From a virus: a stretch of 64,000 nt of DNA. The translations under genes were made by a program, and so were the position numbers. Under the pieces are notes generated by a model. The model was not told the DNA's origin. It made no database searches and saw nothing but the letters and a program-made list of their open reading frames with translations. The stretch spans positions 72,280 to 136,279 of IMG/VR virus record IMGVR_UViG_3300032284_002843; one strand, 5' to 3'. Below, piece by piece: positions 3,597-61,247 of this stretch (within the stretch, counting starts at the first letter, position 1; every line of letters starts with the position of its first letter).

Positions 3597-4850
3597 ATGA
3601 TTCCTGCTCGTAGTCAAGTTGAAACTTTAATTAAACAGGCAAAAATTCGACTGCTGTTTAACAACCCATTCTTTGGCACGCTTATTATGCATCTTCCTCT
3701 ACAGGACGTAACTGATGCTGGCTGGTGCCCTACTGCTGCAGTAGATGGACGGTATATCTACTACAACCGCAACTTTTTTGCCAAGCTAAACGTTGATGAA
3801 ATTATGTTTGTGCTGTGTCACGAGGTTCTGCACGTAGCGTTTGATCATTTTGGACGTCGTAGTCATCGTGATCCACACTGGTGGAATATGGCTAACGATT
3901 ATGTTATCAATGGTCTGCTAGTTAAGGACCACATTGGTAAAATGCCAACTGTGAAAGTTCCAGTTGAGGATAACAGCGGCGGTAAAAAGACCACTAGCCA
4001 GCGTGTTGGTCTCTATGAAGAAAAGTACGTCGGTTGGACCAGTGAAGCTGTTTACGATGATCTTGAAAAGCGTAAGGTCAAGAAAGAACTGACTCTGGAC
4101 GTTCATCTTGAAGCTGGTAAGGATGGTAAGAACAGCAAGAACGGTATTCCTATCGACATCAGCGATGACGAGCTTAGACAGATTCGTGAAGCGATTAAAG
4201 GCAAAGTGCTGCAGGCAGCTAATGCGGCTGCAGGTAAACTTCCTGCTAGCCTGAAGCGTTTTATCGATGAACTAGTAGAGCCCAAAGTTAACTGGCGCGA
4301 TCTACTTCGTCAGAGCATTCAAAGCTGCATCACCGACGACTTTACCTGGCAGAGGCCAAATCGTCGACACATGAATAGCGGAATTTTTCTTCCTACACTT
4401 AAGAAGGATGAAACCATTGACATTCAAATCGCTATTGACATGAGTGGTTCTATTAGCGACGAAATGGGCAAGGACTTTTTGAGCGAAGTTTATGGTATTA
4501 TGCAACAATATCATGACTTTAAGATCGGTGTTATGACATTTGACACTGCTCCGTATGGCTACAAGGAGTTCACCAAGGATAACCAGGACGAGTTGCTGAG
4601 TTATAAGCTGGAGGGCGGCGGCGGCACTGACTTTGATGCTTTCTGGGATTACTGGAAGGACAACAAAATTGAGCCTAAGCTAGCTGTAGTGTTTACCGAC
4701 GGATTTCCGTTTGGTAGCTGGGGCCCAGATAACTATGCAGATACTCTGTGGGTTATCACCGAAGGAGCTAAGACTCGCGTAACTCCGCCATTTGGCCGTT
4801 ATGCTTACTACGAAAATGGTAAGGGTATTGAGGAAGTTGGCGAAGTATGA
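3597..4850 (+). CDS. metallopeptidase-like (HExxH) + VWA-like domain protein (DUF2201 type), partner of the AAA ATPase
   Basis: TAAVDG, HEVLH, N.A.DY.IN; MIDAS DMSGS, GGGTDF, FTDG; AGGAG SD. Confidence 0.88.
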   Translation: MIPARSQVETLIKQAKIRLLFNNPFFGTLIMHLPLQDVTDAGWCPTAAVDGRYIYYNRNFFAKLNVDEIMFVLCHEVLHVAFDHFGRRSHRDPHWWNMANDYVINGLLVKDHIGKMPTVKVPVEDNSGGKKTTSQRVGLYEEKYVGWTSEAVYDDLEKRKVKKELTLDVHLEAGKDGKNSKNGIPIDISDDELRQIREAIKGKVLQAANAAAGKLPASLKRFIDELVEPKVNWRDLLRQSIQSCITDDFTWQRPNRRHMNSGIFLPTLKKDETIDIQIAIDMSGSISDEMGKDFLSEVYGIMQQYHDFKIGVMTFDTAPYGYKEFTKDNQDELLSYKLEGGGGTDFDAFWDYWKDNKIEPKLAVVFTDGFPFGSWGPDNYADTLWVITEGAKTRVTPPFGRYAYYENGKGIEEVGEV

Positions 4851-5155
4851 TCCGAGTAAATTTACATTCAAATAACAGACGGGGAAAACTCCCCGTCTGG
4901 ATTGTCAAACTTATAAACGTATTTCTCGAAAAGTTTGCTGAGGAATATGATGTCAAAACTGGCGATGCATACAGATACCATTTTGAGGATGTGAGACGAT
5001 TAGAAAGATTGAAAAAACTGTTTGAAGATAACAATATAACAGTCGATACGTATAATATGGAAGAACTACCAAGTTGGGGCCTACTTATTCCGCATGATAA
5101 TGAACTGGTAGTAGAATACATCCTAAAATACGGAACTGAAAAAGAAGAAACTTGA
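4847..5155 (+). CDS. hypothetical protein
   Basis: 102-aa ORF overlapping the VWA stop. Confidence 0.6.
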   Translation: MIRVNLHSNNRRGKLPVWIVKLINVFLEKFAEEYDVKTGDAYRYHFEDVRRLERLKKLFEDNNITVDTYNMEELPSWGLLIPHDNELVVEYILKYGTEKEET

Positions 5156-5203
5156 TAAACTCACATTTATAATCTAAACTATACAAGTTTTTGGAGATTA
5201 TAA

Positions 5204-5479
5204 ATGTCATCACCCAGTGATTTTAGTACACAACTCGGAGATTTAACAGCTCAGCTAGCAGGAATGGTAGCGGAACGTTTGGCATGGGCTACACGCAGCA
5301 TAGATCCAAACAAGCGTAGGCAAATACTAGAAATGATTGAAGGGCAACTTCCAGACATCATTGCTAATAGCATAGCTAAAAGTCCAAGTTTGCACAGTGC
5401 CAAAGGTGTTGAATATTTTGAAAAAAATATTGAACAAATGGCCGAATCATATGTTCAAAAGTTCGTAGGAAAAATCTAA
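5204..5479 (+). CDS. hypothetical protein
   Basis: 91-aa ORF with GGAG SD. Confidence 0.7.
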   Translation: MSSPSDFSTQLGDLTAQLAGMVAERLAWATRSIDPNKRRQILEMIEGQLPDIIANSIAKSPSLHSAKGVEYFEKNIEQMAESYVQKFVGKI

Positions 5480-5487
5480 ATAAGTGT

Positions 5488-5736
5488 ATGCAAAAAGATT
5501 TGCGTGAAATTACGCTTAAAGTTCCTTTCCCGGGGAATCCAAAATCGGCAAGTGAAACTTGGATTACATTGCTAGAGCAATGGCTGAGCTGTAATTTCAA
5601 AGGTTACACCGTAACTGTTACACAGGATTCATATCAACGAAATACAGATATTAAAATCAATTTTGCCAATATAGAAGATGCAACCTTTTTCAAATTAAAA
5701 TACTATCAAGAAAATGACTGTAAATATACCATCTAA
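5488..5736 (+). CDS. hypothetical protein
   Basis: 82-aa ORF ending in an F...EDATFFKLKY-type small phage protein motif. Confidence 0.6.
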   Translation: MQKDLREITLKVPFPGNPKSASETWITLLEQWLSCNFKGYTVTVTQDSYQRNTDIKINFANIEDATFFKLKYYQENDCKYTI

Positions 5737-53678: not shown

Positions 53679-54563
53679 ATGGTAACAACAGGAACAACTA
53701 AAATTAAATATCTAACCAATAAGGACTTATTGGAAGAAATTCATAAAAGCAAACTTTCTTATTGTAGTTTTACCGATCCAAAATACACATCATATGATTT
53801 TATCGTGCCAAATATTAAAAAAATAACTAAGAAAAAAATCAACGATGCACGCAGGAAAAGATTTAATGAACTAAAATCTCTGCACAAGAAACAATATGGT
53901 ACCAGCAAAAAGGTGAAACCGCCAACACTATCAAGTATAGCAGCAGACAGCATAGTAATAAGAGTAATGACATATGATCATATACCATTAGATCCTATCA
54001 AAGCTGAAACTGGAAAAACCGAAGCTGAAAAACATATCAAAGTTAATTTCCCTCCTTTCCAACACTATATTATGAAAAATAATAAACTAGTTTGTGTTTT
54101 AAAAAGTCATTGGAAAGATGGATTAAAATCTGGAGAGTTTTGCAAAGAACATGGTAAAATGACCAATCGTTTAGCTCTTATGTTTATGAAATTAGTAGAT
54201 AGATACGGACATAGAGGTAATTGGAGAGGATATACATACTTAGAAGAAATGAAGCTGCAAGCCTTGTTACAGCTGAGCCAGGTAGGCCTACAATTTGACG
54301 AAAGTCGCAGTGAGACTCCAAATCCATTTGCCTATTATACTCAAACTATTACTAACTCTTTTATGAGGGTTCTTAATATAGAGAAGAAGAATCAAAACAT
54401 ACGAGATGACTTGTTAATAATGAACGGAGCAGCTCCAAGTTATACAAGACAAACCGAAGACCACCTTAAGCAACAAGATCCCGAGGGTGGACAATCTAAA
54501 GAAGAAGCAAGTGCTGCTAAACCTACCAAAGGTAGACGTCCATATCAAAAAAAGAAATCATAA
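53679..54563 (+). CDS. late-transcription sigma factor, T4 gp55-like
   Basis: YL.NKDLL.EI, NWRGYTY.EEM, FD...S..PNPFAYYTQ...NSF...EK; upstream of gp47/gp46 as in T4-like phages. Confidence 0.85.
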   Translation: MVTTGTTKIKYLTNKDLLEEIHKSKLSYCSFTDPKYTSYDFIVPNIKKITKKKINDARRKRFNELKSLHKKQYGTSKKVKPPTLSSIAADSIVIRVMTYDHIPLDPIKAETGKTEAEKHIKVNFPPFQHYIMKNNKLVCVLKSHWKDGLKSGEFCKEHGKMTNRLALMFMKLVDRYGHRGNWRGYTYLEEMKLQALLQLSQVGLQFDESRSETPNPFAYYTQTITNSFMRVLNIEKKNQNIRDDLLIMNGAAPSYTRQTEDHLKQQDPEGGQSKEEASAAKPTKGRRPYQKKKS

Positions 54564-55670: not shown

Positions 55671-57449
55671 GTGTTAACTATCAAAAACGTTACCTTACGG
55701 AATTTCCTTAGCTGTGGAAATGTTACACAAACTATTGAACTAAACAAAAATGGTCTCAGCTTGGTTCTAGGAGAAAACCTCGATCTAGGAGGTAACGGAT
55801 CTCGTAATGGTGTAGGCAAAAGTACAATATTACAAGCTATAAGTTTTGGCCTATACGGTGAAAGTCTTACCAATATCAAAAAAGATAATCTTATAAACAA
55901 AATTAATGGCAAAAATATGTATGTTTCAATTGATTTTGAGTCAAATGGGCATTCATATAGAATTGAACGCGGTCGAAAGCCAAATGTATTCAAATACATA
56001 GTTGATAACAAAAATCTAGCAGAAGCTGCTACCGACGAAGCACAAGGCGAAATAAAAGACTCTCAACAGGAAATCAATGAAATACTTGGTATGAGCCATG
56101 CTATGTTCAAACACATTGTAGCATTGAATACCTATACTGAACCATTTCTTAGTTTAGGAGCTGCAAAACAAAGAGAAATTATTGAAGAGTTGCTAGGCAT
56201 TACTATGCTTAGCCAAAAGGCTGAAAACTTAAAAGAAAAAATCAAAATCACAAAAACAAATATCGAGCAAGAAGAGTTTCGAATTAAAACTCTAAAACAG
56301 AGCAATGAAAAAATACGCAGCACGCTTGATGAAATCAAAAGAAAATCCAGTCAATGGGAAACTAAAAAACAACAAACAGTTGATGAACTTGAATCTGCTA
56401 TTAAAAATCTTGAGGTACTGGATATTGAAGTAGAGCTAGAATCACATCGTAACAATGAACTCTACAACGAACTGGTTAAAACCAAAGCACAGGTTGAAAG
56501 AGATTACACAACAAAAACACGTCATTTCAATCAACTTACTAGCCAATTAAACACTGTAATTTCATCATATGATCGTGCTAGTAATCACGCTTGTCCAACA
56601 TGTGGTCAAGATTTGCATGACGACCAACATACTGCAATTAAAAATGATTTAGAATCAAAACTTATCAGTTTAGATGAACAGGTAAAATTTGAACAAAATG
56701 AAATCAACACAGCAAAACAGGATTTAGAAAACGTAAACACAGCGCTGTTGTCGGTGAAAAAACAAAATACCGTTTACAAAAATCTTGAAGAAGCATTAAA
56801 TCATAGAAATACACTTGAAACACTGAAAAAAGAGCTAGACAAAGAGATTGCTAGCTCAAATCCATATCTTGATCAGACCAACAGTATCGGTGATACCATA
56901 CAAGAAGTCACATATGATTTACTCAATCAACTTGCACGAGATAAAGAACATCAAGAATTTCTTTTAAAACTTCTTACTAATAAAGATAGTTTCATTAGAA
57001 AAAAGATTATTGATCAAAATCTAGCATATCTAAACAGCAGGTTAAATGATTACTTAGATAAACTCGGACTTCCGCATCAAATTAAGTTCCTTAATGACCT
57101 CAGTGTGGAAATTACTCTGCTAGGCCAGGATTTAGATTTTGATAATTTGTCGCGCGGCGAACGAACTAGATTGATTCTTGGCCTAAGCTGGGCATTTAGA
57201 GATATATTTGAAAACACTAATCATCCTATTAATCTAATATTTGTTGATGAGTTGTTAGATAGTGGAATGGATCCACAAGGTCTAGAAGGATCTGTGGAAG
57301 TTCTTAAAAAGATGGAACGTGAGCGTCACAAGAATATATTTGTAATCAGTCACAGAGAAGAACTGATACAACGAGTTACTAATGTTCTGTCTGTTGTAAA
57401 AGAAAACGGATTCACAACATTTGACTGGAATCATACTGTAGTTGTTTGA
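55671..57449 (+). CDS. recombination ATPase subunit, gp46/SbcC/Rad50-like
   Basis: NGVGKST, coiled coil with CPTC zinc hook, LSRGE signature, FVDE, ISH. Confidence 0.93.
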   Translation: MLTIKNVTLRNFLSCGNVTQTIELNKNGLSLVLGENLDLGGNGSRNGVGKSTILQAISFGLYGESLTNIKKDNLINKINGKNMYVSIDFESNGHSYRIERGRKPNVFKYIVDNKNLAEAATDEAQGEIKDSQQEINEILGMSHAMFKHIVALNTYTEPFLSLGAAKQREIIEELLGITMLSQKAENLKEKIKITKTNIEQEEFRIKTLKQSNEKIRSTLDEIKRKSSQWETKKQQTVDELESAIKNLEVLDIEVELESHRNNELYNELVKTKAQVERDYTTKTRHFNQLTSQLNTVISSYDRASNHACPTCGQDLHDDQHTAIKNDLESKLISLDEQVKFEQNEINTAKQDLENVNTALLSVKKQNTVYKNLEEALNHRNTLETLKKELDKEIASSNPYLDQTNSIGDTIQEVTYDLLNQLARDKEHQEFLLKLLTNKDSFIRKKIIDQNLAYLNSRLNDYLDKLGLPHQIKFLNDLSVEITLLGQDLDFDNLSRGERTRLILGLSWAFRDIFENTNHPINLIFVDELLDSGMDPQGLEGSVEVLKKMERERHKNIFVISHREELIQRVTNVLSVVKENGFTTFDWNHTVVV

Positions 57450-57943
57450 ACCAATTCAAAGATAATATCTTTATTATCTTTGAATAAATCTTCAAAGTCA
57501 GTTACTACATAGCCTTGATAGTAACAGTGATTTTTTACCTTAAATCTATCTAGGTATTTTTTATCAAACACTGCAAAACTGCCTTTATGATTAATTCTAA
57601 AAACAACTACCCAAAAATCATCAGGATCCGCACTGGTAATAGCCTGTTGAATCCATTTATCTAATAATGGAATTGGATCTTGTTTAAGTAAATTATGAAA
57701 AGGAAAATCTCCGTAGAATTTGCTTTCAATAACCAATTTACGCATGTTACTAGGAGGAATCAAATCTGCTTTAAATGTTGCAATTTGTCCTTCGTCTAAC
57801 ATTGCCTTACGAAAACTATTAAGCCCTCCTAAGAATGCACCACTGTTCGGTACACGTAAAAATTTGGCACCATATAGATTTGTTAAAAATTCGGCAATTT
57901 TTCTTTCGCCAGAATTTCCTTTGCTTTTGCCTTTATTGCTCAT
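57431..57943 (-). CDS. Holliday junction resolvase-like PD-(D/E)xK nuclease
   Basis: KGNSGER, R.P.SGA, ADL, IESK, W..Q. Confidence 0.75.
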   Translation of the reverse strand: MSNKGKSKGNSGERKIAEFLTNLYGAKFLRVPNSGAFLGGLNSFRKAMLDEGQIATFKADLIPPSNMRKLVIESKFYGDFPFHNLLKQDPIPLLDKWIQQAITSADPDDFWVVVFRINHKGSFAVFDKKYLDRFKVKNHCYYQGYVVTDFEDLFKDNKDIIFELVQTTTV

Positions 57944-57991
57944 ATACTATCCTTAGCTTGTGCTATATTTAATACCGATCTACACATCGCA

Positions 57992-58021
57992 TTGACAGAT
58001 TTTTGCCAAGCCAGTTACACT
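57992..58021 (+). promoter_or_regulatory. sigma70-like promoter
   Basis: TTGACA-18-TACACT; GGAG SD and ATG 58043 follow. Confidence 0.55.
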
Positions 58022-58042
58022 TACAATATATGGAGTGAATAT

Positions 58043-58840
58043 ATGGAAAATTTTGATTTAGAACGACCTATTAAAAGGCGGCCACCTAGCCAACGACAGT
58101 TTGTAATTACACCAGATCCACGTTTGCAAAAAAATCTTCTTTATTTTATGCAACAAGAATTAGGTTACTATAACACACTGGTTACCAATTTCAATGCTAG
58201 AGTTAAAGCATTTCCACAGGACATACTAGCCATTAGAGATAGAGATATTAAGCTATTGGAAACCTGCGGACAATTTGCATATGATCCTGATAAGCTATTA
58301 TCAACCGATTATGACAAATGGCCCGAAGCATTTAAAAGCTACCAGTCTATAGTTTATCTTACCGAAGGTAAAACCAGAATATCGGAAAGAACGCTAGGCA
58401 TCATGAAAATAGCCACAGTTCCTGCACATATTCATCATCAAGTTCGTAGAAATATGATCAGCGAAGTGTTCGCTACTGTTAGCTCGCAGGCAAACATATT
58501 TCTAGCAGCCAAAAATACCGAGCAGCTACGTGCACCTGTGCAAATGATGCAGCCACAAACTTGGGAAACCAAGCATCATTTACAGGTACCCAAATCATTA
58601 ATTGAGATGAACTACAATGATGACACTAACTGGACTCTAATCAAAACTCCATATAACAAAGAATGGCTGACTGTGCTAGGGTACGATCTCACTGCTATTC
58701 CATATAACACTATGGTAATTAAGAGCCCAATACCAGGCGAAGATAAGCCAACATGGAGAATCGAGTTTAAAGATCAACCTAACAAATATTTGTTAAACTT
58801 AACAGATCCTCGTCCGTACAAAAAGAAAAGAAGAACATAA
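58043..58840 (+). CDS. TnpB/Cas12f REC-WED-lobe-like protein lacking RuvC (tentative)
   Basis: RQFVITPDPRLQKNLLYFMQQELGYYNTLV, IHHQVRRNMISEVF and TMVIK...WRIEF align by eye with the TnpB N-lobe pattern; the ORF ends before any RuvC-I motif. Confidence 0.55.
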   Translation: MENFDLERPIKRRPPSQRQFVITPDPRLQKNLLYFMQQELGYYNTLVTNFNARVKAFPQDILAIRDRDIKLLETCGQFAYDPDKLLSTDYDKWPEAFKSYQSIVYLTEGKTRISERTLGIMKIATVPAHIHHQVRRNMISEVFATVSSQANIFLAAKNTEQLRAPVQMMQPQTWETKHHLQVPKSLIEMNYNDDTNWTLIKTPYNKEWLTVLGYDLTAIPYNTMVIKSPIPGEDKPTWRIEFKDQPNKYLLNLTDPRPYKKKRRT

Positions 58841-58876
58841 AAAAATGCTGCAATAGCGTCCTATTGCAGCATTTTT
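58841..58876. terminator. strong, potentially bidirectional intrinsic terminator
   Basis: 16-bp perfect stem AAAAATGCTGCAATAG-CGTC-CTATTGCAGCATTTTT. Confidence 0.85.
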
Positions 58877-58950
58877 ATGGCTCATAATATGAACGTTGGC
58901 TCAGGACGTTCACATCATTATTATAGATAAACAGTTGATATAGGTCAAAT

Positions 58951-59238
58951 ATGCAGAAAAAATATTTTCCAAGTCCCAGCAAACAAAGTACAAAAAAACT
59001 GAATAGTTTTAACAAAAAAGTGAAAAAGCGTTGGGAAATAATTCAAAAAAATAATGGAAAAAGTTTAAGAAAAGAATTTGACCTAATAATGAAACTCAAC
59101 TACAGTATGTTAAATGCTCAAGAAATTGAGCAGATATGGCACACAATTGGCACACAAATAGCTCACAAACAATCTCATATAGGCTCCTTAAAAAATCTCA
59201 TTATAGACTCAATTAGGCTCACAAATAATTCCCACTAA
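58951..59238 (+). CDS. doubtful Lys-rich ORF
   Basis: 95-aa low-complexity ORF overlapping a GAAA hairpin and the repeat tract; weak SD. Confidence 0.3.
   Translation: MQKKYFPSPSKQSTKKLNSFNKKVKKRWEIIQKNNGKSLRKEFDLIMKLNYSMLNAQEIEQIWHTIGTQIAHKQSHIGSLKNLIIDSIRLTNNSH
59138..59221 (+). repeat. eight phased degenerate RRC(T/A)CA-like repeats, ~11-nt period
   Basis: ggcaca 59138, ggcaca 59149, agctca 59160, atctca 59172, ggctcc 59182, atctca 59195, gactca 59206, ggctca 59216. Confidence 0.6.
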
Positions 59239-59244
59239 AATACT

Positions 59245-59706
59245 GGCAATAAAATGGTAGTCGTGCTACCGCAGTGAAAGGTTAACGAACCGGTTAACAT
59301 ACTCACTCAAAAAGGGTCGTATCTAATAGCTCTTAAGCCCTGACCAGAAAGAGAGCAAAAAGGATTACAGCCGTAGTGTGACTACGCACCTGTAACTTAT
59401 TCAATTCTTTGCTTACATAGATTGAATAGGGCTTGGTAATACCATAACCGAGATGAAACGCAAGTTTCGAGTATAACATCCTCATGTTGGAATTAGGATC
59501 TCCGCCAACTGGCACAGCCATGGATGATGTAGCATGGATAGTTCTCATCAGAATGTCGACTATTTTTTACATACTCCCCCGCGAGGGGAGTATTATGGCT
59601 TCATTCTATCAGAATATCATTCAATTAAAGATGTTGTTTGTTGTAGTGAGCTAAAGCGAAACGTAAACAAACAACTGATGAGCGTTAAGCTCATCACTTA
59701 AACATC
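59245..59706 (+). ncRNA. putative large structured non-coding RNA
   Basis: more than 12 helices in ~460 nt, GCAA and GCGA tetraloops, long-range and pseudoknot pairings, no convincing ORF; boundaries approximate. Confidence 0.65.
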
Positions 59707-59732
59707 ACTTACCATCCACTAAATAAAATGTT

Positions 59733-60086
59733 ATGAAACTAAGTGATTTGCTTGAAAACAACGTAATTAAAACTAAGTTTGCTTTAAAACAAACACAAAA
59801 GAATTTAACTCCATATATGCATAATCCTGATATTGAAATTCCGCAATATGATCCGGATAAAAATAGTCTGTGGATATCAGGACTCAGCAAAAGCGAGCCT
59901 GAGAAATTTAAACGATTTGAAGTTGAGCCAGCTGGAAAATCATCTAGTCATATTATAGGTATAGCTGCTAATGGAAATAGAATACGTGTTAGCACTGCAA
60001 ATACTCAACTTGCTGATACTTTAGCAGATTTATATAATCGCGGTGGTTGGTCACAGCACAATTTAGAACGAGTGCAACTGAAATAA
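59733..60086 (+). CDS. late protein with MKLSDLLE N-terminus (possible head-internal protein)
   Basis: CTAAATA late box 7 nt upstream; N-terminal L-x-E motif. Confidence 0.65.
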   Translation: MKLSDLLENNVIKTKFALKQTQKNLTPYMHNPDIEIPQYDPDKNSLWISGLSKSEPEKFKRFEVEPAGKSSSHIIGIAANGNRIRVSTANTQLADTLADLYNRGGWSQHNLERVQLK

Positions 60087-60284
60087 TTAATCTGGTATCA
60101 TATTGCCGCCTTTTTTACTGCTCATAGCGGCATAGTGTTTTTCAATAGTTTTACTAAGTATTTTACGTTGATCAGCACTGAGTAAATGTGCATCGTCGAA
60201 GCTAATTCCTCCCTCCATATAAAAGACCAATGTGGATAATTCTACTGTGATAATTTCACGGTTTTTTTCCATTATGTCCAACAT
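60087..60284 (-). CDS. tail/baseplate assembly chaperone C-terminal part (probably the -1 frameshift extension of the upstream gene)
   Basis: its frame is open back to the slippery site TTTTTTC; no well-spaced SD; FYMEGGISFDDA..L...R motif. Confidence 0.7.
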   Translation of the reverse strand: MLDIMEKNREIITVELSTLVFYMEGGISFDDAHLLSADQRKILSKTIEKHYAAMSSKKGGNMIPD

Positions 60285-60310
60285 CTCAGTAATTTGAGAG
60301 GGGTCTCCTG

Positions 60311-61165
60311 TTAGGAGGATTTGCCGAAAAAACTTGATGGATCAAAGTTTAATGTTTCAGTCCAAGTATGTTCACATTTTGTGCATTGTGCTGGAAATTC
60401 TTTATTTGGACCAACAGAATTAAGCTTGTTAACAGTTTCTATTACAATATCAGCTTCTTTCTTACTGATATTAGTTAGCCATTCATTGATATGATTTTTA
60501 TCAGTTATAGTTTCATTTGTCTGTAGCAGTACAATTTTTTCTATACTTTTACTAACCAAGTCAAAGGTAATGTTGGAAATTCTATCAACGCTTTCGGCAA
60601 GTATTTTAGCTTTTTCCAACTCATCTATTTGTTTATTACTTTCGTCTATTGAACGCAATAACTTTTCTTCGGCAAATTCTCTCTTGATAAAAAGCTGACG
60701 CATTTCAAATGTATATGGTTTTACCCAGACTTCTAATTCTCCGTTAAATGTAATTTTACGATCGTTTTCATTTATAATGGTACTGGTTGCTAGCAGGCCG
60801 TTACAATTGACTTCATAGGTATTTTCATATTCGCATTTTGGACATTTTCTATCCAAATCAAACTTACCATTATTACTAGCAGCTTTCATACCTACGAAAA
60901 TGGTTTCCAAATCTGGAATTAACAACTTTTTAATATCTTTTACATCTGGTGCACAGTTTTTTATAACCTTTTCCAATGCTTGACCGTTTAACATAGCATC
61001 TGGAGTGTTTAAAAGAATGTCATCTATTGCACTTAATGGATAAATGGGAATTTCACCTTCATCGTTTAGATTTACGCTGCCATCAGTGTACCAAATTCCC
61101 AACGTTGGGAGTCTTACATATGCCCCAGCTTGTCTAAAATACTTCGATAATGGGTTATTATTCAT
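60311..61165 (-). CDS. baseplate hub/tail assembly chaperone, T4 gp26-like
   Basis: NPL..YFRQ...Y.RLP..G, D...L.TPDA.LNG, CPKC and CTKC, ends FDPSSFF. Confidence 0.8.
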   Translation of the reverse strand: MNNNPLSKYFRQAGAYVRLPTLGIWYTDGSVNLNDEGEIPIYPLSAIDDILLNTPDAMLNGQALEKVIKNCAPDVKDIKKLLIPDLETIFVGMKAASNNGKFDLDRKCPKCEYENTYEVNCNGLLATSTIINENDRKITFNGELEVWVKPYTFEMRQLFIKREFAEEKLLRSIDESNKQIDELEKAKILAESVDRISNITFDLVSKSIEKIVLLQTNETITDKNHINEWLTNISKKEADIVIETVNKLNSVGPNKEFPAQCTKCEHTWTETLNFDPSSFFGKSS

Positions 61166-61247
61166 GTAAAATTCCTTCAATAAATACAATGCGTGAAAAT
61201 ATTTATCTGAATTAAATAGGTACTTAAAAAATAAGTGATTTTGTTAG

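Follow-up and report, generated by a model that had tools for sequence, protein, structure and literature searches.

A predicted RuvC-less TnpB/Cas12-like recognition lobe and a conserved structured RNA at one locus of a jumbo phage

Background

The closest described counterparts of the phage locus reported here are TnpB of the IS200/IS605 insertion sequences (IS), represented by ISDra2 TnpB (Protein Data Bank (PDB) entries 8H1J and 8EXA), and miniature Cas12f (8DZJ and 7WJU). TldR, natural dCas12f (9N9C), Cas12k and Cas12m keep a mutated or partly truncated RuvC domain together with short guides. The accessible part of one study describes inactivated TnpBs and TnpBs truncated after RuvC-II, and no forms that consist of the recognition lobe only (PMC10691335). 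The locus examined here lies in a 64,000-nucleotide stretch of viral DNA (hereafter the window, whose coordinates are used throughout), which is the last 64 kb of the 136-kb IMG/VR contig IMGVR_UViG_3300032284_002843. Two elements stand on its + strand: a gene for a 265-aa RuvC-less TnpB/Cas12-like protein (58043-58840), here called the WED-REC protein, and a structured RNA of ~460 nt with 22 predicted helices (59236-59702), here called RNA-A. Because the contig is 136 kb long yet estimated to be only 32% complete, its source is a jumbo phage.

According to the accessible part of a preprint, EGFOA RNAs (Rfam RF02955) occur in unusually large gene-free intergenic regions, and these putative small RNAs oligomerise in vitro (bioRxiv 10.64898/2026.07.01.735769). 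Viral structured-RNA candidates of 29-151 nt are given in the available portion of another report, whose supplements might hold pieces of RNA-A (PMC10690425).

Results and discussion

A predicted WED-REC lobe that ends before RuvC

The 265-aa protein is predicted to fold like the WED-REC recognition lobe of TnpB/Cas12, without RuvC. A sequence-only reading of this DNA had proposed such a lobe and had named structure prediction as a check on it; the AlphaFold2 model and the Foldseek, VIA and BFVD comparisons agree on a TnpB-like fold. The model, built from 140 sequences, has a predicted local distance difference test (pLDDT) value of 94.6 and a predicted template modelling (TM) score of 0.89. 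It contains an N-terminal strand (residues 19-22), a helical REC region (26-158) and WED beta strands (179-243), which correspond to the N-terminal strand, helical insertion and beta-barrel of a WED-REC lobe.

In a Foldseek comparison with the PDB, the first 34 rows (ranks 1-37) hold only Cas12f, Cas12n, Cas12o, Cas12p, Cas12k, Cas12g, Cas12m, Cas-lambda, TranC and TnpB chains, with weak E-values (from 1.8e-3) and TM scores of 0.28-0.38. The top 25 rows of a VIA comparison with 48,161 chains are all Cas12, TnpB or Fanzor; model residues 16-245 match the N-terminal lobes of these targets, and the match stops where the target RuvC starts. BFVD returns two uncharacterised viral family members, followed by giant-virus TnpB/Fanzor 'transposases'. 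An earlier model made from 11 sequences was poor (pLDDT 60.8) and already gave the same Cas12/TnpB families.

The protein ends ~20 residues past the WED domain and has neither a RuvC domain with a D-E-D triad nor a zinc finger or TNB domain. Across the 136-kb contig, PF01385 finds no match at E<=10, PF12323 finds none, and PF07282 finds a single match of 16 bits (cut-off 26.3); no RuvC or TNB partner is encoded there. This PF07282 match (56490-56639, +) was considered as a TnpB remnant and rejected, being the zinc hook of a gp46/Rad50-like protein. It resembles the Cas12f1-like TNB zinc-ribbon family only as zinc ribbons generally do. After the last strand of the 265-aa protein come a conserved YxxxxxD segment and a basic tail, and one may speculate that the YxxxxxD segment is a vestige of the first RuvC strand.

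The protein is basic (pI 9.4), and its reading frame sits inside a longer one that starts with TTG. Ten relatives share 50-67% identity with it, and a search of 1.84 billion representatives gathers a family of 178 clusters at E<=1e-3. Among the best 150 of these 178 clusters, lengths range from 71 to 345 aa and are mostly 225-345 aa; the named family members are all annotated 'hypothetical protein'. Pfam, PHROG and PDB sequence searches with the protein return no match, and PDB profile searches return no TnpB/Cas12 at E<=10. The 140 family members give no consistent Pfam match at E<=0.01 and no PHROG match, and no sequence-profile similarity to TnpB families was found with the local Pfam library. 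A language-model look-up points to the short families Aq_aa04 (PF27142), SSO2105_N (PF27229, 'putative transposase fragment') and MJ0013 (PF27234), as a lead only. A search for longer homologues, confined to proteins of 605-2000 aa, came up empty, which carries little weight. When the locus, the protein, a distant family member and a member of the sister clade B described below were compared with deposited phages by DNA and protein BLAST, none gave a match, and a wider metagenome scan yields two short, truncated loci only.

Candidates for the expression signals that the sequence-only reading had assigned to this gene are in place. A putative sigma70-like promoter, TTGACA-18-TACACT, precedes it at 57992-58021 (+), with 10 of 12 positions matching in a consensus scan, and a perfect hairpin of 16 bp, set between runs of A and T, follows it at 58841-58876; this hairpin is terminator-like and possibly bidirectional. 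As had also been remarked, neither a transposase (TnpA) nor IS ends are present at the locus, and nothing there indicates mobility of the IS200/IS605 kind. The gene is single-copy in the contig, and its position is fixed within a conserved synteny in the 29 fetched loci.

A large, conserved and covarying RNA

RNA-A is a real, conserved and covarying structured RNA, which bears out the ~460 nt of dense structure first noticed from the letters of the window. The segment 59240-59710 folds with a z score of -4.5 on the + strand, better than all 100 shuffles, and of -2.9 on the - strand. In L003, a locus whose protein is 48% identical, the downstream non-coding DNA aligns to 59236-59702 at ~80% identity, which is above the value for coding DNA. 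Searches with nhmmer and with a covariance model of the core find RNA-A on the same strand, 400-800 nt 3' of the protein gene. It is present in L003, L012, L014, L015, L017, L018, L019, L020 and L036, and weaker matches occur in L022 (covariance-model E 5.8e-7) and L023 (E 0.096). Contigs of a relative from one independent run are 94-99% alike over the RNA part, compared with 82-84% over the part holding the open reading frame (ORF).

In a 10-sequence alignment, RNAalifold predicts 112 pairs in 22 helices, with 90.1% of cells paired against 34-45% when the pairing partners are slid. Double changes are seen at 57 pairs, compared with 18-24 for slid partners. The covariation score is 0.378 against 0.185 for shuffled alignments, with none of 500 shuffles as high, although the structure was derived from the same alignment and is somewhat favoured by it. 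The most conserved core (59474-59621, +), which is the basis of model R1, contains GGAAUUAGG followed by CUCCGCC, then CAUCAGAA, a CUCCCCGCAAGGGGAG hairpin and CUAUCAGAAU. The 3' end consists of two hairpins, at ~59633-59675 and 59676-59696.

RNA-A occurs once in the contig. Rfam 15, searched permissively, gives no match at E<=1 in 57000-61000 or in seven RNA-A loci; ARAGORN finds no tRNA or tmRNA in the window; and an RNA pattern scan of a genome contig collection finds no RNA-A. A role as the leader of a downstream gene was rejected, since a convergent gene follows the RNA in L003. A role as the 3' untranslated region of a 95-aa ORF that precedes it (described below) is unlikely, as L003 and L022 carry the RNA without this ORF.

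The sequence-only reading had looked ahead to a guide segment with matches in phage DNA. No such segment emerged: the region 58841-59735 has no match of at least 16 nt in the rest of the 136-kb contig, which represents ~32% of the genome. Guide candidates drawn from the locus were 12-15-mers only, at chance level, and were rejected.

The interval between gene and RNA

A hairpin and a small ORF that the sequence-only reading had missed lie between the WED-REC gene and RNA-A. The hairpin (58890-58912, +) has an 8-bp stem and a TTGGCTCAGG loop, which reads GGCUCA and is conserved in relatives; the stems vary between relatives yet still pair, as judged by eye. At this stem length, the 136-kb contig has no other hairpin of the kind. 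A putative promoter site, TTGGCT-17-TATTAT (58896-58924, +), overlaps it, and the hairpin may serve as promoter, as second terminator or as binding site for a protein.

The small ORF (58951-59238, +) encodes a basic protein of 95 aa (pI 10.3) with the conserved core LRxEFD...LWxxIG. It is conserved at the amino-acid level in 10 aligned loci, as well as in L036, and has no Pfam, PHROG or PDB match. Nine of the 11 RNA-A loci carry it, and no locus without the cassette has it. In L018 (4767-5135 of that locus, +), a further ORF, Cys/His-rich and 122 aa long, stands between the WED-REC gene and the small one, so the slot tolerates insertions.

The GGC(T/A)CA repeat tract reported from the sequence stands as a local feature. 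Over the whole window GGCWCA shows no enrichment (40 sites, with 46 expected), but six of the 16 + strand sites cluster inside 58879-59516, a segment of 638 nt in which 0.16 would be expected (post-hoc Poisson p ~2e-8), and the boxes are conserved. The array proper spans 59136-59241 (+), where relaxed boxes start at 59136, 59147, 59158, 59180 and 59214, with spacings of 11, 11, 22 and 34 nt. Most of the tract lies within the 95-aa ORF. Because a conserved Gly-Ser/Thr pair of this ORF is always coded GGC-WCA in six loci, the boxes are, on the evidence of codon use, constrained at the nucleotide level, as DNA or as RNA. GGCWCA as a genome-wide promoter element was rejected, the motif being specific to the locus.

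The last box, together with TCCC and an A/T hexamer, forms a candidate promoter for RNA-A (TAGGCT-16-TAAAAT). This combination is kept 5' of the RNA regardless of reading frame or of where the ORF ends. RNAalifold also predicts pairing between the last box and a conserved AUGGCYU close to the 3' part of the RNA, with no covariation.

Distribution of the RNA among relatives

The comparison covers 29 loci fetched by protein, one fetched by RNA pattern, and the window. Seven of these end too early downstream, and 24 can be assessed: 11 have RNA-A, one is borderline (L023), eight have other structured RNAs and four have no RNA. The RNA-less loci are L007, L008 and L009, which are identical, plus L011, and they make up two distinct lineages. 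Their downstream DNA of ~245 nt holds a terminator and a small minus-strand ORF, and their proteins keep all 19 of the conserved residues checked. A search of the rest of their contigs (2-13% complete) with the core RNA model gave no match. These loci nest inside the RNA-A clade, and the absence of the RNA is therefore taken as a secondary loss.

In a sister clade (B; L024-L031, on contigs of up to 465 kb), whose proteins are 25-32% identical, other conserved structured RNAs lie directly 3' of the gene (~4754-5500, +), starting directly after the gene's terminator. In the type called B1, 94.6% of cells pair, and 39 pairs have double changes compared with 0-8 for slid partners, in an alignment of four sequences. 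Only the first ~190 nt are common to B1 and the second type, B2, though the proteins are close, and no homology was detected between RNA-A and the RNAs of clade B. The B2 RNAs of L025, L026, L028 and L029 score 34.8-37.5 bits against Rfam EGFOA, whose gathering score is 37.7. B2 RNA is found once per genome in three genomes of 416-465 kb that are 90-100% complete (L045-L047). The EGFOA covariance model has no match in the window at E<=1, and no relative reaches its gathering score.

The slot is also recognisable in deposited phages. Sinorhizobium phage Phosso, a complete genome of 469 kb, has an unannotated gap of 1,015 nt at the equivalent position and in the same orientation (L041, 8410-9425), followed by an RNase HI gene. 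Over ~210 nt this gap matches the B2 profile (E 2.8e-12), and it scores 29 bits against EGFOA, below 37.7. Neither the Phosso locus nor its whole genome matches the WED-REC protein profile at E<=1. Pseudomonas phage PA5oct carries neither the WED-REC protein nor these RNAs; its slot (L040, 8868-9530) is 663 nt without annotated genes, folds with a z score of -9.1 made up largely of long perfect hairpins, and has no homology to RNA-A or the clade B RNAs. The interval between the recombination and baseplate modules is a conserved 'RNA slot' whose large RNAs differ between clades.

Independent neighbours or a ribonucleoprotein

We hold, with middling confidence, that the WED-REC protein and RNA-A are two novel neighbours that probably act independently, because large RNAs occupy the slot whether or not the WED-REC gene is present, and the gene is kept unaltered where the RNA is missing. 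The functional link between protein and RNA that the sequence-only reading had drawn from adjacency is weakened accordingly. That reading had itself set down, as a finding that would tell against it, the occurrence of either element without the other, and both cases are seen among the 24 assessable loci and Phosso: four loci of two lineages have an intact protein and no RNA, and Phosso has a sister RNA and no protein.

On this reading, the 265-aa ORF would descend from the WED-REC-WED lobe of a TnpB/Cas12 protein that lost its RuvC/zinc-finger half and with it the capacity to cut. Its product would most likely be a nucleic-acid binder, made early or mid infection from the sigma70-type promoter. 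Its gene is fixed, always between recombination and baseplate genes, in a clade of jumbo myoviruses that is uncultured and has PA5oct and Phosso as relatives. Downstream, on the same reading, lies a separate cassette, consisting of the GGCUCA-loop hairpin, the small basic ORF, the GGCWCA boxes and RNA-A. A promoter of its own (box, TCCC and -10-like hexamer) probably drives transcription of RNA-A, which may work in trans as a stable structured molecule, comparable to other large RNAs that phages carry. The co-inherited 95-aa basic protein would be its likeliest partner, if it has one; it is at least as good a partner candidate for RNA-A as the WED-REC protein.

A possible but doubtful alternative is a nuclease-free ribonucleoprotein (RNP), in which RNA-A, or the 5' segment common to the sister RNAs, would be bound by the WED-REC protein as an omega-RNA-like scaffold, and the complex would bind DNA or RNA without cutting it and regulate phage or host genes. 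Several observations favour it and weigh against independence. The predicted fold matches the lobe with which TnpB/Cas12 proteins bind RNA and heteroduplexes, and TnpB-family proteins typically bind an RNA encoded just 3' on the same strand. This same-strand downstream layout is found in every RNA-bearing clade, with a large structured RNA 3' of the gene in 19-20 of the 24 loci, at protein identities of 25-100%. In clade B the RNA begins directly after the terminator of the gene, and the two RNA types have their first ~190 nt in common. When loci were sought by RNA first, seven of seven hits had the protein upstream. The RNA-less contigs are, moreover, only 2-13% complete, so that the RNA could have moved, and the RNA that Phosso carries without the protein is of the B2 type, not RNA-A.

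Against such an RNP stand the four loci in which the protein, with its conserved residues intact, has no RNA, and the B2-type RNA without protein in the complete Phosso genome. The seven-of-seven co-occurrence says little, because two features that each have a single fixed position within a single lineage would co-occur in any case. The missing match of at least 16 nt between the locus and the other 135 kb of the contig also counts against it, as do the RNA lengths of 460-700 nt, which are far above those of known omega-RNA scaffolds. The more ambitious proposal that protein and RNA form the first fully RuvC-less TnpB-derived RNP, an RNA-scaffolded or RNA-guided nucleic-acid binder with an unusually large omega-RNA-like partner (460-700 nt) that jumbo phages use to control their own or host genes, would treat the RNA-less and protein-less relatives as secondary losses or relocations, and we regard it as rather unlikely. 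The other ideas of the sequence-only reading, namely R-loop priming, anti-defence, and the gp55-like sigma factor or the resolvase as partners, are speculative.

It is improbable that the WED-REC protein is instead a box-binding regulator, one that keeps TAM-like recognition of double-stranded DNA (TAM, target-adjacent motif), binds the boxes or the hairpin and switches the small-ORF/RNA-A cassette, as T4 MotA does at Mot boxes. Such a role would suit the boxes at -35-like positions of the promoter-like sites TTGGCT-17-TATTAT and TAGGCT-16-TAAAAT, the GGC-WCA kept in the small ORF of six loci, the spacing in multiples of ~11 nt and a motif that is locus-specific rather than a genome-wide promoter type. 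However, the protein is unaltered in the clade that lacks the cassette, so that its targets cannot be limited to the boxes, and hairpin stems that vary while still pairing point to a function as single-stranded nucleic acid rather than to a plain duplex site. Improbable, too, is a convergent or too remote TnpB likeness in an unrelated helical-plus-beta phage protein, such as a recombination or packaging accessory, which would have to produce 25 leading chains out of 48,161 from one superfamily, a match that spans the whole protein with the same split topology up to the start of RuvC, and the dominance of the same family in two other libraries and with the poorer model.

Genomic setting

The locus follows a late sigma factor gene of the gp55 type (53679-54563; phrog_12791, E 1.8e-86), gp47- and gp46-like recombination nuclease genes, and a PDDEXK/RusA-like resolvase gene (57431-57943, -). 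A baseplate hub gene (60311-61189, -) lies 3' of the RNA-A region, with a long tape-measure-like ORF beyond it. The order of gp55-like sigma factor, gp47, gp46, resolvase (-), WED-REC ORF and baseplate hub (-) is kept in relatives. By gp46, the nearest deposited phages are Phosso (48.5% identity) and the PA5oct group (~287 kb; 47.4%), and the gene order of the locus is common to both and the window. Two further ORFs separate RNA-A from the baseplate hub gene. An ORF of 117 aa (59733-60086, +) follows RNA-A only in the window and has no family match, and one of 65 aa (60087-60284, -) is conserved in relatives, RNA-less ones included.

Comparison with known systems

The literature search found no description of a RuvC-less TnpB half or of RNA-A. 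From TnpB and Cas12f, the 265-aa protein differs in having no RuvC, zinc finger, transposon ends or TnpA, and no detectable sequence similarity, and RNA-A differs in having no identified guide. RNA-A is two to three times larger than omega-RNAs. TldR is set apart by what remains of its nuclease: in the WED-REC protein the whole nuclease half is gone, and no guide has been identified, so that the protein does not fall within the TldR group.

The RNAs of the slot compare with known classes in different ways. EGFOA is ~108 nt long, whereas the slot RNAs measure 460-700 nt; RNA-A does not match it, and the B2 RNA of the same slot and the Phosso gap approach it from below the gathering score. RNA-A has no Rfam match to GOLLD, ROOL or OLE. 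As set out in the accessible part of a recent account, these are large, multi-helix, covarying RNAs of unknown function, and in this they are like RNA-A (PMC12286853).

Taken with these systems, the WED-REC protein would extend the series of TnpB exaptations from active nuclease through dead nuclease to loss of the nuclease half, in a large phage family (178 clusters) that no library names. RNA-A represents a new class of large structured RNA with strong covariation, and the 'RNA slot' of jumbo phages related to PA5oct and Phosso holds at least three different large RNAs. The EGFOA-like RNA of this slot gives EGFOA, whose function is unknown, a genomic context and, in Phosso, a possible cultured system. 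The locus lends itself to a clean test of whether the recognition lobe of a TnpB/Cas12-type protein still uses RNA when it stands alone.

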